Assembly (NCBI GenBank): GCA_051382295.1
Contig: JBBCAW010000086.1
Span: 1 to 28,425 of the forward strand
Source: Bdellovibrionota bacterium FG-1
Lineage (GTDB): Bacteria > Bdellovibrionota > UBA1018
Direction of reading: 5' to 3'
DNA length: 28,425 nt
How positions within the stretch are numbered: position 1 is the stretch's first letter; every line of letters begins with the position of its first letter. This document shows positions 20,406-27,490 of the stretch, piece after piece. A program made the position numbers and the translations under genes. The notes beneath the pieces are model-generated. The model searched no databases. It was not told the DNA's origin and saw only the letters and a list, made by a program, of their open reading frames with translations.

Positions 20406-21546
20406 ATGACATTAGCTCCTCATGAAATCCGCGAGCAACTCGCTTCGATGAAGCATAAACTCGACTTCCTACGGGGGTCGCTTTGACCTCGCTGCAAAAA
20501 CCCGTCGAATTGAAGAGCTGAGTCATCTTTCTACCCTTCCTGAATTTTGGAGCGACAATCGTCAAGCGCGAGAAATGACGACTGAAAAGTCACGTCTTGA
20601 AGACGAAGTGAATCAATACAATGATTTAAGTCGTAGCTATGCCGATGTCGAGACGTTGTTTGAGCTCTCGCAAGAAGAAAAAGACGATTCTGCGATGGCC
20701 GAGGTGTCGGGGTTGGTTTCGGAACTCTCGCAAAAGTTTGAAAAAGCAGAGTTTCGTAAAATGCTCTCTGAGGATCATGATTCGCGAAATGCGATTGTGA
20801 CGATCAATGCCGGGGCCGGGGGGACTGAGTCCCAAGACTGGGCGCAGATGTTGTTGCGCATGTACCAGCGTTGGGGTCAAGACAAGGGATTTAAGGTGGA
20901 GTTGATGGATGCGCTGGCCGGTGAAGAGGCTGGGATTAAAAACGCCACGTTGACGATCACCGGGCCTTTTGCCTACGGACAGCTTAAATCTGAGGCTGGT
21001 GTGCATCGTTTGGTTCGAATTTCGCCGTTTGATTCGAATGCACGGCGTCATACTTCTTTCACCTCAGTTTATGTGACTCCCGAAGTGGATGATGACTTTG
21101 AGGTGGTGATTAACCCCGCTGACTTGCGCGTGGACGTTTTTAGATCCGGCGGCAAGGGGGGGCAGGGCGTGAATACCACGGATTCGGCCGTCCGACTGAC
21201 CCATTATCCTTCGGGACTGGTGGTTGCCTGTCAGCAAGAACGTTCGCAAATTAAGAATAAAGCCTTAGCCATGAAGGTTCTGAAGTCGCGCCTCTATGAG
21301 CGACATCTCGAAGAGGAGCATAAAAAGCAGCAAGCGGTCGAGGAGACTAAAAAGGATATTGCCTGGGGCAGTCAAATTCGTTCCTACGTCCTGCATCCTT
21401 ACAAAATGGTGAAGGATCATCGGACGGGGTTTACCGTTCCGGTGGCGGATAAAGTGTTGGATGGGGAGTTGGATGGCTTTATGAAGGCTTATCTTACTTG
21501 CCGCATCACGGGCGAGTGGGCTCGGGGTGGAAGCGACGAAGTCTAA
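20406..21546 (+). CDS. prfB: Peptide chain release factor 2 (programmed +1 frameshift at codon 26)
   Basis: SPF and GGQ motifs. The frame from ATG 20406 (MTLAPHEIREQ…FLRGSL) ends at CTT-TGA-C (20481-87); GAC at 20485 is in frame with the 20575-21546 ORF. Confidence 0.97.
20473..20487 (+). promoter_or_regulatory. RF2 autoregulatory frameshift signal
   Basis: Internal SD-like GGGGG, 3-nt spacer, then CTTTGAC. Confidence 0.93.
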
Positions 21547-21611
21547 AAATAGGGCAGGATTTGTTGACAAGCCCTTAGCCCTGAATTATGCATGTTCACA
21601 CATCTGTTTGC

Positions 21612-21688
21612 GGGGGCGTAGTTGAGTTGGTTACAACGTCGCCCTGTCACGGCGAAGGTCGTGGGTTCGAGTCCCATCGCTCCCGCCA
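21612..21688 (+). tRNA. tRNA-Asp (GTC)
   Basis: Acceptor stem GGGGGCG/CGCTCCC, anticodon arm TCGCC-CTGTCAC-GGCGA, GGTTCGAGTCC T-arm, encoded CCA; TTGACA at 21564 upstream. Confidence 0.97.
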
Positions 21689-22047
21689 TTTAGATGCACA
21701 TCCGTACTTTGTTTCCTCCCATCGATCCGTGACAAGCTGGGGGGACAAGGTTCCCCAAAAATCACCAATTCAATCCGGTTGTCCTTATAAATAATGATCT
21801 TTTTGACGATTTTTTCGATCAGGTTACGCTGCTCCGTGCCCGTGAGTTGATCGAAGCGGTCGCGGAACCGAGTGACGGCGTCCTCAAGTCGTTCCAGCCC
21901 TGATCGGCGCATAATTTCATCCCTGTAACGTTCAGTCGCATCCAGCTCGGCGGTTTTTTGTTCCTTATTTTGCAGGAGATGTTTGACCTGCTCCTCAAGC
22001 CAAACCATGAACCCTGCTCGGTCCCTGCCATCGTATTCAGTAACCTG
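21631..22047 (-). pseudogene. C-terminal remnant of a large serine recombinase/integrase
   Basis: Coiled coil followed by EQRNLIEKIVKKIIIYKDNRIELVI, typical of LSR C-termini. The frame runs through the tRNA antisense and is cut at 22047 by the IS110 end. Confidence 0.7.
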
Positions 22048-22051
22048 TTAT

Positions 22052-22391
22052 GTGAAAAATCAAGCAAGGACGCCCTCAACTGACTTTTTTTGTGTGTTGA
22101 AATTCAAATAGTTAAAATTTACGATCTTTTTCCTTCCTTCTTCTGCTTCGATAAATTTAGCTGAACGACCTGTTATTCGTGGTCAGGGCCTTGGCTCCGC
22201 CACCAGTTGCGAAATTCGCTGTCTAAAAATTTGGCGCCGCGCCTCACACTGCCCAACGTGACGAAGATATTTTCTTCTCACCAGGTAACCACCGAGGTCA
22301 CGGCCGTAGCTTTTAGTTCATACTTTGTTATCGAGGCAACACTGACTGTAGACGATGAATGGGTTTTTAGGCTGGTTTTTCTTTTTTTGAC
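22052..22391 (-). ncRNA. Candidate IS110/IS1111 bridge (seek) RNA region
   Basis: Lies downstream of the transposase and contains several stems (CGTGAC/GTCACG, GAAGA/TCTTC, CGCCA/TGGCG, GCGAA/TTCGC). A hairpin loop ATAACAGG matches the element junction. Exact RNA ends unknown. Confidence 0.55.
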
Positions 22392-22592
22392 TCACATGCA
22401 AACCCCCAATTGATAGGTCACTTCCTGCCTAAAACAGGCTCGAATTCGGCCAATTAGTTTTCTGGCAATCGCGATAATTGCCCTCTTCTTGCCGCGCTTC
22501 ACTGCAATCCTCTCGAAGATTGCCTTGAGTGCATCGTCCTTTTTGATCGCAAACCAGGAGGCTTCCACTAAAATTTTCCTAATTCTGGTCGA
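22392..22592 (-). pseudogene. IS110-family transposase C-terminal fragment
   Basis: STRIRKILVEASWFAIKKDDALKAIFERIAVKRGKKRAIIAIARKLIGRIRACF matches the IS110 C-terminal helices (R..LVEAAW…GKK.AI.A.ARKL). Confidence 0.85.
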
Positions 22593-22812
22593 TTGGAGCA
22601 ACGGGGTTACGCCATCGGATATTCCAGCAATCGGCAAGTTTTGTAAAAAAATGGGCATAGATTTTAGCTGGCTTATGCTTGGCGAAAGCGCAAAAGTCAG
22701 CCCGTTCGATGTCCCGCTTGAAGCCATATTTGACGAACAGGACGCTGGTTTCGAGGGGGTTTATAAGATCAAGGCGGTCCGGTTGGTTCGTAAGATTGGA
22801 GAAAAGAAATGA
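22585..22812 (+). pseudogene. 5'-truncated XRE/HTH phage-type repressor
   Basis: LVDWSNGVTPSDIPAIGKFCKKMGIDFSWLMLGE is the second half of an XRE HTH; the N-terminus is replaced by IS110 sequence. Confidence 0.65.
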
Positions 22813-23198
22813 GCAAATTTGTTGTAACCGGACTGGTACTTGCTCTGACCTCTACAGGTGTGGCAGGGGCTGAGGAAGGGAACTGGAATTTCTCCGCGCA
22901 GTTTAAGAGTGACTATGTTTCGGCGGTGCTCGAAGCGAAGAGAGAAGCAGAGAGCGGTTCGTCATCGTTGAAGAAAAAGGCGAAGCCGTTATGCCCAGAC
23001 CTAAATCTGCTCCTTAAAGATTCAAAACAGCCGGTTCAAGATTTAGTTCCGATAGAGGCCGCGATTTGTAAAGACGCCCTTGAGGCTCAGAATATCCCGT
23101 GTGTTTGCGGAGGATTTACTGGCATTGGTGCTGCGCGAGCGTTACTTCGATCAAAACTGAATGAAGTCTGTAAGTGGAAAGCAAAGGTTCAAGGATGA
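22809..23198 (+). CDS. Secreted Cys-containing hypothetical protein
   Basis: Signal peptide MSKFVVTGLVLALTSTGVAGA; ATGA overlap with the XRE stop. Confidence 0.75.
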   Translation: MSKFVVTGLVLALTSTGVAGAEEGNWNFSAQFKSDYVSAVLEAKREAESGSSSLKKKAKPLCPDLNLLLKDSKQPVQDLVPIEAAICKDALEAQNIPCVCGGFTGIGAARALLRSKLNEVCKWKAKVQG

Positions 23199-24229
23199 AG
23201 CACATGAGAAAGATTGCCGCGACGTTATTACTTCTGGTTGCTTTTGGTTGTAGCACCATGTTCGTAACCCATTCACCTGAGGAAAATACGGAATCATTGC
23301 GAAAGCTAGTTACGAGTGGGAACCGCGCAGAAATCGAAAAGTATCTCAAGGATAATCAAAGTTATATTGATCGTAGCTGTGGAGCGTCTTGTGGTGTTGC
23401 AGTTCAGTTGACGAACAATATTTCCTATGGAAGTGATGAGTTCCTAAATGAGTATGATCGAAACATACGCTCAGTTGAACAAAGCCTTGAAACCTGCGGT
23501 AAATATAAAGGTTCGATCACCGAGGAGTATCTTAACTGCCTCCTTAAAGTTGAACTCGGAAAAATAGGGGATCAAAACTACTTCGCCCGAACCTGTGCCT
23601 TGGAAGGTAAAGTCGAATCTGGTGGAGGATGCCAAGTGATCAAAGCCCGCGTAGAGGGAACCAGTAGTTACAAATACGACCTCCAATATGAGGGTCAGAT
23701 CGCTCAACAAGCGTGGTTGTCCAATGCGCTCAAAGGTAAATACCTAGATGCGATCAAGGTAGCGGTCAATAATGCTAATGCTGCGTCAAATCAGCGCGGG
23801 GTTGATGACAAGAAGGCGAATGATGAATGGGAATATAATCAGAAGGAGTGTCGGAAGGCTGGTTTGAGTCGTGCCGTATATGCCCAGATTCGAGTCGAGC
23901 AAAAAATTTCTGCTGAGGCAATGGAGGCCAGACTGATAGCCGTAAATGGGTATGTTTGTGGTGAAATGCAGGAAATCACAAAAGTGCTGCCAAAGGTATT
24001 CGTACTACTTGGTGCCTCTACGGTGAAACAGGATAATTGCGCGACAGTTTACATGAATCATGCCGGATTTTTGCGGCAAACCAATAGACAAGGTTTCGCG
24101 GTTGAAGCGCCTACTTGGAAAGTGCTTTCGCCAGCGGAGGTGAAGCTGATTCCAGCAAGTGCCAGGAAAAGCAGGGCGGGAACCCTGTTAGAGTCGTCTG
24201 AATGGAGCTATTGTCAGCCTTTCCCGTAA
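23195..24229 (+). CDS. Cys-rich lipoprotein
   Basis: Lipobox VAFG-C after MKHMRKIAATLLLL; ATGA overlap with the upstream gene. Confidence 0.8.
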   Translation: MKHMRKIAATLLLLVAFGCSTMFVTHSPEENTESLRKLVTSGNRAEIEKYLKDNQSYIDRSCGASCGVAVQLTNNISYGSDEFLNEYDRNIRSVEQSLETCGKYKGSITEEYLNCLLKVELGKIGDQNYFARTCALEGKVESGGGCQVIKARVEGTSSYKYDLQYEGQIAQQAWLSNALKGKYLDAIKVAVNNANAASNQRGVDDKKANDEWEYNQKECRKAGLSRAVYAQIRVEQKISAEAMEARLIAVNGYVCGEMQEITKVLPKVFVLLGASTVKQDNCATVYMNHAGFLRQTNRQGFAVEAPTWKVLSPAEVKLIPASARKSRAGTLLESSEWSYCQPFP

Positions 24230-24255
24230 CACAGTAGGAGAATTGGACTCGATTG

Positions 24256-24678
24256 TTATTCGGAGATGAGGAGTCCAGAGCGGTGGTCCTCATATACTGC
24301 CTTTCGCAAATCAGAGTCACCCACAGCCGTCAACGCTTTCACCAGCGCACATAATTCTTGTGTGCTGTACCGAATGGCACGTTTTGGAATTTTGCCCTCA
24401 TAAAAGGCACGATGGTCGAGAAAACCGTCTTGAATGATCGCGTATAGTTTTCCACCGATTCCTTTATCCCGAATGGCACCGTTTTCGACATGTGCCTTGA
24501 TGACCGCTTCTCTTTTTGCACTCCATGCTCGCTGTCGCTGGATGCCCCAACACTCAGCCGATGACCACCGCTCCACGGTCGCCTTGCCGATGCCGAGTTC
24601 GCTGGTAATGCGCCGGAGGCTCCATCCCTTTTCAACATAGAGGGCAAAAGCGTGATGCTTGGTGTCTGCCATCGTCAT
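24256..24678 (-). CDS. HTH protein, phage terminase-small-subunit/gpP-N-terminal-like
   Basis: AFALYVEKGWSLRRITSELGIGKATVERWSSAECW; extended -10 TGATAAAAT 6 nt before the ATG. Confidence 0.65.
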   Translation of the reverse strand: MTMADTKHHAFALYVEKGWSLRRITSELGIGKATVERWSSAECWGIQRQRAWSAKREAVIKAHVENGAIRDKGIGGKLYAIIQDGFLDHRAFYEGKIPKRAIRYSTQELCALVKALTAVGDSDLRKAVYEDHRSGLLISE

Positions 24679-24855
24679 GCTATCATTTTATCAACAACGG
24701 GCACCTATGGCGAGCTTTGGGTCGTGTAGGAACACGGGAATTTAGCAACTGATGTGTACGAACAGTACCATCCTTTCTAATGATCGCGAGCCTTTGCAAA
24801 TGCACCGCCTGTATGATCGTTTGTTGCTCTTGATTGCTCTGTCCAAGTAAATATT

Positions 24856-27354
24856 TTATGCTGCAAGCAATGTTTCCAGGTCAAGCCAAGTTGGTGCTTC
24901 TTTAACTTTCTTTGTCAAAAATGCAAGGTTCTCGAAAGACTCCGACTTCGATGGATCAAACGCGACTATTTTTACTTTCCGTTTTAAATCATTTCCAATC
25001 GCCTGGAACGTCAGCTTAGTTGCCATCTTGTTTCTTAGTTCTTCGAGGCGTGATCCTATCATAATTACAAATTGAACATCGAGATTCTTTTGCCTCAATA
25101 GCGGTGCAACTCGTTCAAATGCGTCGATAAAATTCGTGGTCGTTTCCACCTCAATACAGTAGATCGTGCTAACAAGTTCGCTTTCTTTTTTGTCAGTCCA
25201 TGCGATCAGGTCAATATTGGTAATTCTTTTTAAATCCTGCTTTGAAATTCCAGTTGTTTCACATTTATTCAGGAAATTAAAAATAGAACCCATTGATTTG
25301 CTTAAACCACGAAAAATTCCATCCGACTGTTCTGGCTTTCCAACGGCAAGACTAAACCCCTTTCTCTGAAGTGCCTTGCCACAGTGAAGAATGATGCGAT
25401 TGTGAATGGTCGATTTTCCGCGCATAACTTCCTGTTTCGCTTCCCAAAGACCACCTTTTTTTGGACTGGCAAATTTCTTTAATGCGGTCGTAATGCTAGA
25501 TGAATCAGGTGTTAGGGAATTGGGATATTCTTTTAGCAGCTCGGTCCAGATGTCAGTATAGGTCACCACTCTGGAAGCTGTGAGCATCTCTCTCACCGTT
25601 TTTTCGACTCGAAGTGAAAGTGGGGTTCCTTCATATTCAGAGCCTTTTTTGAAGGCTACAAGGCCCTCTTTATCTACTTTGAAACGATCAGATTTCTTGA
25701 TTATCTTCTCAACGTCATTCTCAAGGGCTGATTCATCATCAAAGAAGCCCGACTTAAAGAGTTCCCGCTCACACTCAGCCGTTATGACGTTAATCGGGGT
25801 CGCCTCGCCTCTGTGTTTCAACATGTAAACTGTACGTTCATTGACAATAGATTCTAGCGACTGGGTTCTTGATCGCGCTGGGACAGTGGCTGACTTAGGT
25901 TTGAAAAACCGGAAGATGAAATCGCCAAAGACAGAGCCAAACGGCTGTTCGATAGCCTTCTTGCTGGTGCGCACTGATTGCTGAAAGTGTAGCTTTTCAA
26001 AATCTAGGCCAGCAAGTCGTGCAGCTCTTAAGGTCAAATTTCTATATTTAACTTTAGGTGAAGAATAGGTGACGTGAATATAGGACTCAGGGGATACCGC
26101 GTCGGCAATTTGAGAAAATGCCGCCCTTAGGTGCTGGTAATAATCAGGAAGCTTTTTATGCTGGCCCTTGTTTTCAGTTAATTCACTGGCTTCAATGTTA
26201 CCAAGATATGTTTTATTATCCATGTCGCTCCTCCATGCGTTCCACATGAAAGAAAGCTCGCCATATTGAATCATGCCGTTGTATGGAGGATCGGTAAAAA
26301 CGTAATCGGCTTTCTTCTTTGAGTTCGCTATCGCCCTAAGAAAAGAAGCGCAATCCTGGGTGGTGAACAAGATATCGGCCTTTCCGGACAATACCTCATC
26401 AATAGTTCTAGCAATTTTAACAGGGGTCTTTCTTATTGAACTCCAATCCGTGATGACAGCCAAGTATTCAGTGAGCTTGCGATCAAAAGCACCCCAGACA
26501 TTGATTTCTACGGGGTTTTTGGCAAACCAAAAGCTGTGCTGAGTCCAACCTGCACTAAGTGGTCGAACCCTCCTATCGCCAGAAACTCGGCTGCAAAGAT
26601 GAACAAAAGAACGAAAGAGAGTCTGTAAAATGCGCTTTTCAGACGACTTCCAGTCGCGATTTTCGATTACATCCCATATGTAAGCTAAGGCAAGGAGATT
26701 TCTTGGTGTGAAAAGATCGCGATAGAATTGATATTTTTCTCTTTTATTAAATGGTTCGCCATTAGCGTATTCTAGTTTTGTGTCAGGCCACCAGATGCCT
26801 TCATTATCCAACTGCCGTTCGAAGCGGTTATAATAGCTCGACTCGTCTATTTTTTCCCGTATTAGGCCGTCGCGACATTTACAGTTATACCGAAGCTCGA
26901 TTGGTTCAACTTTGTTATTACTGATTACGTTGACCGAGGTTGCAAGAATTTGAACCTTACCTTCACAGTGCTTGCACTTGTGGCTGTAAAGGGCTTGAAC
27001 TTTGTCTCGTGTCAATTCTCTGGCTTTTAATGCCAGTTTTGTGAAGTCATCAAGGTTAAGTGGGTTGATCGTTGCATTGATAATGTCTGCACTCATGGGA
27101 TTGAGGTCGCAAACCAATGCCCTACGTCCTGCTCTGAGGGCTTCGATCGCGGTAATGCCTGAGCCTACAAAGGGATCAAGTACCACACCATTCGGTGGAC
27201 AGTAATTTTCAATGAACTCCCGAACTACATTGTGAGGTTTTCGTCCCCAATATTTTTGCCATTGATAGATTGCCGAGTTCCCATCGGGCGGAATGGCAAA
27301 TTCAATATGTCGAAATTGTTCATCTGCGCTTGCTGGTTTCGCCCTGGTGGTCAT
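24856..27354 (-). CDS. Amino-DNA-methyltransferase (motif I then DPPY, Zn-ribbon insert) fused to a C-terminal PD-(D/E)XK-like nuclease domain
   Basis: YWGRKP, VLDPFVGSG, CKHC…CKC, FTDPPY and C-terminal NIDLIAW…IEVETTT. GGAG SD before ATG 27354; the ORF track starts at 27390. Confidence 0.85.
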   Translation of the reverse strand: MTTRAKPASADEQFRHIEFAIPPDGNSAIYQWQKYWGRKPHNVVREFIENYCPPNGVVLDPFVGSGITAIEALRAGRRALVCDLNPMSADIINATINPLNLDDFTKLALKARELTRDKVQALYSHKCKHCEGKVQILATSVNVISNNKVEPIELRYNCKCRDGLIREKIDESSYYNRFERQLDNEGIWWPDTKLEYANGEPFNKREKYQFYRDLFTPRNLLALAYIWDVIENRDWKSSEKRILQTLFRSFVHLCSRVSGDRRVRPLSAGWTQHSFWFAKNPVEINVWGAFDRKLTEYLAVITDWSSIRKTPVKIARTIDEVLSGKADILFTTQDCASFLRAIANSKKKADYVFTDPPYNGMIQYGELSFMWNAWRSDMDNKTYLGNIEASELTENKGQHKKLPDYYQHLRAAFSQIADAVSPESYIHVTYSSPKVKYRNLTLRAARLAGLDFEKLHFQQSVRTSKKAIEQPFGSVFGDFIFRFFKPKSATVPARSRTQSLESIVNERTVYMLKHRGEATPINVITAECERELFKSGFFDDESALENDVEKIIKKSDRFKVDKEGLVAFKKGSEYEGTPLSLRVEKTVREMLTASRVVTYTDIWTELLKEYPNSLTPDSSSITTALKKFASPKKGGLWEAKQEVMRGKSTIHNRIILHCGKALQRKGFSLAVGKPEQSDGIFRGLSKSMGSIFNFLNKCETTGISKQDLKRITNIDLIAWTDKKESELVSTIYCIEVETTTNFIDAFERVAPLLRQKNLDVQFVIMIGSRLEELRNKMATKLTFQAIGNDLKRKVKIVAFDPSKSESFENLAFLTKKVKEAPTWLDLETLLAA

Positions 27355-27490
27355 TGTTGCTCCCGATGAGGTGGTTTGACAAACTCTCATCGGCTCGCAA
27401 CCGTTTCTTATTTAGTTGTTTCGGCACCTTGCAGCCTTTGAGCGGGAAGTGGTAGTCGATCGCCTTATCGAACTGCGGATTTGAGGGCAT
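27320..27490 (-). CDS. Possible 56-aa leader ORF overlapping the methyltransferase start
   Basis: MPSNPQFDKAIDYHFPLKGCKVPKQLNKKRLRADESLSNHLIGSNNDHQGETSKRR*, preceded by TG-C-TATCAC-6 nt-ATG. Confidence 0.3.
   Translation of the reverse strand: MPSNPQFDKAIDYHFPLKGCKVPKQLNKKRLRADESLSNHLIGSNNDHQGETSKRR
27363..27393. promoter_or_regulatory. Inverted repeat/hairpin abutting the methyltransferase SD
   Basis: CCGATGAG(27363-70)…CTCATCGG(27386-93) with an inner GTTT-GAC-AAAC stem. Confidence 0.55.

Follow-up and report, generated by a model that had tools for sequence, protein, structure and literature searches.

The window analysed here is a 28,425-nt stretch of DNA from Bdellovibrionota bacterium FG-1 (contig JBBCAW010000086.1, positions 1 to 28,425). 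At 22044..22595, on the minus strand, it carries the remnant of an insertion sequence (IS), reduced to a transposase tail and a complete non-coding right end. The C-terminal transposase stub (22392..22595, minus strand) consists of 67 codons (22395-22595) and a stop codon (22392-22394), and the 348 nt between this stop codon and the terminus of the element at 22044 (22391-22044) are non-coding. The left end and some 285 transposase codons have been lost, similarity to relatives ending near 22595 with unrelated DNA beyond. The remnant is very probably, with a probability of about 0.9, a 5′-truncated element of the IS1111 group of the IS110 family that has kept a canonical two-loop bridge RNA, or seekRNA, of ~155 nt at 22307-22150.

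A first-pass annotation, made from the sequence of the window, had recognised the stub as that of an IS110 transposase, and protein comparisons uphold this. The stub aligns with positions 281-341 of the 343 positions of the NCBIfam profile NF033542 (IS110 family RNA-guided transposase) with 27.5 bits, which is below the 140-bit cut-off of the profile because only the tail is present, and 22395-22595 corresponds to residues 286-352 of a full-length, 352-residue relative (P0001) with 88% identity. Fifty-three proteins among 88 longer candidates were matched by the stub at E <= 0.001, nearly all of them 350-352 aa long and containing the DEDD transposase domains PF01548 and PF02371; neither the window nor any other part of the assembly contains this catalytic portion. 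The motif GL-P----S(t)G, described for transposases of the IS1111 group (Siddiquee et al. 2024, PMC11187229), appears as GLTPSEHSSG in the consensus of 28 relatives, at a position upstream of where the window stub begins. Since both the left end and the catalytic domain are absent, the remnant is a dead copy that is unable to move by itself. The alignment of the 28 relatives (A1) served as the query for the 160 loci used below, 80 from genome contigs and 80 from metagenome contigs.

The bridge/seekRNA gene occupies 22150..22307 on the minus strand and is a full-length match to a covariance model, R1 (107 bits, E 2.3e-23, model positions 1-155 of 155). R1 was built from 40 dereplicated non-coding regions of relatives, less than 88% identical and chosen from 79 (A2), which were trimmed to alignment A3; the fold is that of RNAalifold together with a basal stem read by hand from the alignment. 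At the sequence level, 22262-22150 was recovered by blastn in 74 fetched loci, always downstream of the transposase gene, and the block GACCnCGA-AUAACAGG-UnGUUCAGC is nearly invariant among relatives. Run on the 80 genome-contig loci, R1 matches 50 at E <= 0.001; each match spans the whole model, follows the transposase gene and lies on its strand. The reach of the model extends to loci whose transposases are ~34% identical.

In A3 (39 distinct rows, 36 pairs), 90.5% of the cells of the fold are paired, against 78.6 +/- 0.6 in shuffled alignments, none of 500 of which reached the observed level, and slid registers of the same fold give 35-43%. Compensatory changes on both sides are found at 27 of the 36 pairs. 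One G-U pair is invariant (39/39 rows) and G-U pairs occur at many other positions, so the transposase strand is the coding strand of the RNA. The structure comprises two internal-loop modules, each with a basal stem and a capping hairpin and each backed by covariation, the arrangement by which a bridge RNA is recognised. The target-binding-loop module (22237..22303, minus strand) has the basal stem CCGUG-A-CCUCG / UGAGG-CGCGG and a distal hairpin at 22281-22258; its helices 1 and 2 are paired in 96.4% and 90.1% of cells, with compensatory changes at 12 of 17 pairs. The donor-binding-loop module (22156..22227, minus strand) has the basal stems UUUAG/CUAAA and GAAU/GUUC and a distal stem-loop at 22203-22179; its helices 3-5 are paired in 77.2%, 80.8% and 95.1% of cells, the covariation of the basal stems having been read manually. 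Thus the guide RNA gene that the annotation had proposed downstream of the stub is borne out by a covarying fold and, as described below, by guides that covary with element ends and flanks across relatives. The accompanying label ‘hairpin-rich’ fails by folding energy: the 348-nt stretch folds no better than its shuffles (z = +0.23) and the 158-nt RNA alone gives z = -1.37. Folding energy of the single sequence is uninformative for this region.

The donor guides are tied to the ends of the element. The 9-mer ATAACAGGT is found exactly twice in the window, at 22176-22168 within the RNA gene and at 22051-22043 across the junction between element and flank, just as had been noticed in the first reading; 0.10 matches are expected by chance, and at least two matches occurred in 1 of 100 shuffles. 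That the junction is the end of the element, also claimed then, is confirmed by three other copies in the same genome, which share the sequence through ...CACATAACAGG and then diverge, placing the true end at 22044. The right-end terminus (22044..22063, minus strand) reads TTGATT-TTTCACATAAC-AG-G, in which TTGATT is a -35-like hexamer. The internal motif is present in 95 of the 160 loci, and in 81 of these the 8-mer recurs 95-235 nt downstream, this terminal copy having TTGnnnnTCAC before it and unrelated flank beyond. The 8-mer has two variable positions, and at both of them the internal and the terminal copy agree in 81/81 loci, which fall into four classes: ATAACAGG (AG, 64 loci), ATAGCAGG (GG, 7 loci), ATAGCAGA (GA, 9 loci) and ATAACAGA (AA, 1 locus). 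The proposal that AUAACAGG is the guide matching the donor is thus supported by complete concordance of each locus with its own terminus.

This guide forms the 3′ strand of the donor loop (22168..22176, minus strand): AUAAC-AG, followed by G(U), equals the right-end terminus, the core and one or two handshake bases. Handshake guides have been described for IS621 (Hiraizumi et al. 2024, PMC11208158), and by this analogy the base after the core in the donor loop (the 8th base) behaves like them: it equals the first base of the right flank and matches position 6 of the target guide (C/G or U/A) in 36 of 39 rows. The 9-nt identity can accordingly be broken down into five bases of the right end, the two of the core and two handshake bases. 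The 5′ strand of the donor loop, GCAACUG (22204..22210, minus strand), has as its complement C-AG-TTGC, which in the relatives is the part of the circle junction contributed by the left end. Where a left end could be defined, in 32 relatives, this guide pairs on average at 3.28 of the 4 positions of left-end bases 3-6; judged from these relatives, GCAACUG would have the same role in the window. The left ends of relatives start AG-T(C/T)GCTATG, and with AG as the shared core the joined ends read TTGCAA, 17 nt, TATGCT, which is a sigma-70-like promoter of the kind described for the family (Pares-Guillen et al. 2025, PMC12288879). By extension from the relatives, TTGATT at the right end of the window element would join a left-end -10 hexamer in the circular form. 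In one relative (L101), imperfect inverted repeats connect the left end (225-244) and the right end (1747-1764), and by eye TATGCTGAAT faces ATTCACATA as sub-terminal inverted repeats in relatives; the window has no left end.

The target guides lie in the first module. Its 5′ strand, GGUUACCUG (22282..22290, minus strand), is complementary to the top strand C-AG-GTAACC, that is, to the last base of the left flank, the core AG and the right flank; this is the second segment, GGTTACCTG at 22290-22282, which had been singled out earlier for its resemblance to the junction, and it is indeed present there. Its 3′ strand, GUUGGGC plus the core AG (22249..22257, minus strand), has the top-strand sequence of the predicted left flank. 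The same arrangement is seen in relatives, where the nine-base segment just 5′ of the distal hairpin is the complement of the top strand over the core and right flank, and on the 3′ side the heptamer that runs up to the conserved AG has the sequence of the left flank. Agreement of the 5′-strand guide with the right flank averages 4.12/6, against 2.32 when permuted (24 unique guide sets), and that of the 3′-strand guide with the left flank 4.15/7, against 1.78 (20 unique guide sets); neither value was reached in 5000 permutations, and the test is conservative in that a few rows are one base off register. Perfect matches to the right flank are found at L018, L035 and L048 among others, and to the left flank at L041, L114, L152 and L164. 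In the window, GGUUACCUG and GUUGGGC-AG together predict the target TTGGGC-AG-GTAACC. This 14-nt sequence (TTGGGCAGGTAACC) occurs exactly once in the genome, on the minus strand at C54:25818, with ~0.03 occurrences expected by arithmetic, and may be an unoccupied cognate site.

Taken together with what was computed here (the homology of stub and RNA to full-length elements, the covarying fold, the covariation of guides with flanks and end, and the coding strand), the published work on IS621, ISEc11, ISKpn4 and ISPa11 suggests how an intact element of this kind would operate. The RNA would be transcribed from the promoter formed at the circle junction and bound by a transposase tetramer. In the target loop, the predicted partner of GGUUACCUG is the top strand over the core AG and right flank, and that of GUUGGGC-AG is the bottom strand over the left flank and core. 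The donor loop would read the excised circle where its right and left ends are joined, GCAACUG pairing with one strand and AUAAC-AG with the other. The bases G and U after the core in the donor loop would repeat the first bases of the right flank, in the manner of the IS621 handshake guides, and recombination would take place at the AG core.

Several observations weigh against this interpretation or limit its application to the window copy. The match of the target guide to the right flank, the one flank that the window offers for comparison, is imperfect, with 4/6 positions in the window, 3/6 in the copy on contig C96 and 1/6 in that on C28; at C73 it is 5/6. The left end of the window element is gone, so that the donor role of GCAACUG there is read from relatives and there is no circle-junction promoter of its own to compare. 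The basal stems of the donor loop are the weakest helices of the fold (77-81% of cells paired), and 14 of the 95 loci with the internal motif have no terminal motif, 6 of them with <250 nt left downstream and 8 with >500 nt. R1 finds no match in the non-coding regions of IS5075 (L178) or a Klebsiella plasmid relative (L179), the best E being 0.25; the transposases of these two are 26-30% identical, that of IS5075 ~26%. These were the elements compared with R1, rather than ISEc11, ISKpn4 or ISPa11, and the likeness to the experimentally tested seekRNAs is accordingly one of architecture. A scan of 21400-23000 against Rfam 15 at E <= 1 yielded the tRNA and two chance-level matches, and no family for the RNA. 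No minus-strand sigma-70-like promoter was detected in 21950-22750, the one plus-strand site being at chance frequency; since the circle-junction promoter is the sole one reported for ISEc11 in the published description (PMC11187229), the truncated window copy may not be transcribed. On the minus strand at 22316-22323, 9 nt upstream of the model start, lies GTATGAAC, which is conserved in most of the 40 relatives (A2 columns 44-51) and could be a -10-like element or a processing signal.

The features of the window and its relatives agree well with published accounts of the IS1111 group. Elements of this group have long right ends and sub-terminal inverted repeats of 7-17 bp, and bridge RNAs are predicted in the right end of 93.0% of them (Durrant et al. 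2024, PMC11208160). Their seekRNAs, as described for ISEc11, ISKpn4 and ISPa11, derive from the non-coding region downstream of the transposase gene, are 154 nt and 82 nt long in ISEc11, and carry the top-strand-complementary guide 5′ of the bottom-strand-complementary guide (PMC11187229). A long non-coding region 3′ of the transposase gene is present in the window (248-632 nt in relatives) and holds the RNA gene in the same place; the 155 positions of R1 are similar in size to the long RNA of ISEc11, and the guide order is the same, with the top-strand-complementary guide first. The relatives of the window element also share with the group, so far as it is described in these papers, transposases of 350-352 aa with the GL-P----SG motif, sub-terminal inverted repeats and a right-end -35 hexamer facing a left-end -10 hexamer. 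The window copy differs in being without transposase body and left end, and its core is inferred to be AG.

The likeness extends in part to IS621, the well-described member of the IS110 group (Durrant et al. 2024; Hiraizumi et al. 2024, PMC11208158). According to these accounts, the IS621 bridge RNA has the same two internal loops, each with a basal stem and a capping hairpin. Both DNA strands are recognised within each loop, about a common core of 2 nt, and bases after the core mirror the partner DNA as handshake guides do. In contrast, the window RNA is encoded in the right end and the IS621 RNA in the left end, the core is AG in the former and CT in the latter, and within a loop the guides follow the opposite strand order.

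Other fragments of the element are scattered through the FG-1 genome. The segment 22044-22351 is a repeat shared with other contigs, and further copies at 96-99% identity lie at C96:1-309, C28:3683-3953, C26:1-127 and C73:4240-4374. R1 identifies the RNA in full in both C28 and C96 and half of it in C26, so that with the window the assembly holds three complete RNA genes, one half copy, one right-end fragment and no intact transposase of the family. There is no other piece of the stub's transposase in the assembly (158 contigs, 97.7% complete), nor any IS110-family match above the family cut-off in these 158 contigs. Sixty further genomes from the same family and order were searched for the element DNA and did not yield it, the lone match being 40 nt long and within the transposase part (G038, E 5e-5). 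Another IS110-type tail, unrelated to the stub (L006), lies at the end of a 94.5-kb contig (C41:94387-94497), followed by ~250-300 nt of non-coding DNA in which R1 has no match. Because the C96 and C26 copies, which end 44 nt upstream of the RNA, and the C41 tail all stop at contig ends, IS bodies are plainly under-assembled, and intact copies may exist elsewhere in the organism. The description of the RNA gene as ‘orphaned’ stands for this copy and for the assembly, and may not extend to the organism as a whole, the C96 and C26 copies running off their contigs.

One of the more diverged right ends deserves separate mention: C73:4240-4374, equivalent to window 22033-22168, is 96% identical, and its contig breaks off after exactly the first base of the internal ATAACAGGT, which may be an assembly accident or a real junction. 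Insertion of the element into its own internal site was considered for this contig end and set aside, the expected divergence point being 22177, not 22168. The C28 copy was likewise considered as a miniature element, with left end, RNA and right end, and rejected, as no left-end-like motif lies upstream. The upstream edges of the C28 and C26 fragments (22314 and 22225, respectively) have no left-end-like sequence, and both fragments look like truncation products with arbitrary inner edges.

The existence of RNA genes without a transposase raises the question of whether they are kept for action in trans, to supply or retarget guides for a transposase elsewhere or to move as non-autonomous modules. 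Copies of the guides in the genome (ATAACAGG, CAGGTAACC) might also serve as pseudo-sites that generate RNA-bearing fragments. We consider such a retained function unlikely. The presence of such RNA genes has a partial parallel in ISPpu9, in which copies of the small RNA gene ssr9 likewise occur without an adjoining transposase gene; ssr9 is described there as dispensable for transposition and as bounded by duplicated A′/B′ boxes that allow it to form its own circles (PMC12288879), whereas the fragments in the FG-1 genome have arbitrary upstream edges.

The ISPpu9 case also suggests that the internal copy of the end sequence could be an alternative element end acting at the DNA level rather than an RNA guide. 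In the published description, the A′/B′ boxes of ISPpu9 bound separate transposase and ssr9 modules, and modular circles and unlinked copies of the small RNA are reported (PMC12288879). The RNA-bearing fragments in C28, C96 and the window, which have no transposase gene, and the contig end in C73, one base into the 9-mer, would fit such an arrangement. However, the 8-mer sits within a covarying RNA structure, its 8th base tracks the target-loop guide (36/39 rows), which a DNA end box would not predict, and the absence of left-end-like sequence at the upstream edges in C28 and C26 also speaks against it. An end of this kind is highly improbable, and the canonical reading, in which the 8-mer is a donor guide, is preferred.

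The first-pass annotation had placed this guide in the 8-nt terminal loop of a hairpin, CTGA-CC-ACGA-ATAACAGG-TCGT-TCAG at 22186-22161, and had proposed from this a different RNA architecture. The hairpin can indeed be drawn in the window sequence and its loop does equal the element end, but its standing as a structure is lost when relatives are aligned: on A3, 63.1% of its cells are paired, below the shuffle mean of 66.4% and with 500/500 shuffles as high, a single cell is compensatory, and three of its eight pairs are unpaired in 20-32 of the 39 rows, the bases of its stems varying without compensation. It is absent from both the minimum-free-energy and the centroid fold of the window sequence. 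Moreover, CAC (22181-22179), three of the four 5′ bases of its inner stem, pairs with an upstream GUG in the competing distal stem, which covaries (at its middle pair, 22 rows have A-U and 10 have U-A). AUAACAGG is thus left within an internal loop, on its 3′ strand, like the guides of the bridge RNAs already described, and a new architecture is extremely improbable. Least tenable of all, with a probability close to nil, is the idea that the 9-mer repeat is fortuitous and the region decaying IS DNA without RNA function, which would suit the unremarkable folding energy of the non-coding stretch and the lack of an Rfam family and is already contradicted by the comparative data: the structure is conserved among relatives, the guides covary with ends and flanks, and the repeat itself is rare (0.10 expected).

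The window copy, an IS remnant in what looks like a degraded integrative island by tRNA-Asp, matters little in itself. The by-product of the comparison, of modest use for work on bridge recombinases, is a well-populated clade of IS1111-type elements whose RNA has 155 nt and two loops and whose core is inferred to be AG. It provides covariation evidence for a handshake-type base in RNAs of the IS1111 group too, and its target guides visibly follow natural targets, including ribosome-binding-site-like GAA-AG-GAGG and palindromes resembling repetitive extragenic palindromic (REP) sequences. The known mechanism is left unchanged by the window RNA and the clade.

Many relatives from soil metagenomes (including L101, L109, L112, L113, L115, L119 and L123) are inserted at GAA-AG|GAGG, often with an ATG a few bases on, and these insertion sites look like ribosome-binding sites. 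The guides UCCCUCCUU and GGUCGAA-AG fit these sites, and AGGAGG is restored at the junction by the right end (...ATAAC-AG). In one metagenome-assembled genome, six identical copies (L041-L046) all lie in the palindromic repeat CCCCTCTCCCCTTGCGGG-AG-AGGGTTAGGGAGAGGGG, which their 3′-strand target guide UGCGGG-AG matches perfectly.

The surroundings of the remnant in the window themselves look like those of a mobile element in decay. At lower coordinates, on the plus strand, are prfB (20575-21546) and the tRNA-Asp gene (21612-21688), which is adjoined by the C-terminal remnant of a large serine recombinase gene (21730..22043, minus strand) that ends at the IS right end. The earlier claim of a recombinase frame broken at the junction agrees with a minus-strand frame that is open from 21634 up to 22047 and whose relatives are large serine recombinases, one with PF07508 (P0055) and one with PF00239 (P0056); these two proteins were the only matches at E <= 0.001 among the 257 candidates scored. 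Pfam gave no match on the stub or the neighbouring open reading frames (ORFs). The serine recombinase gene appears to have been interrupted by the IS, which is in turn truncated at ~22595 against an unrelated plus-strand ORF (22489-22812). As a whole, 21612-27390 resembles a degraded integrative island at tRNA-Asp, and this putative island includes a minus-strand ORF of 844 aa at 24856-27390.

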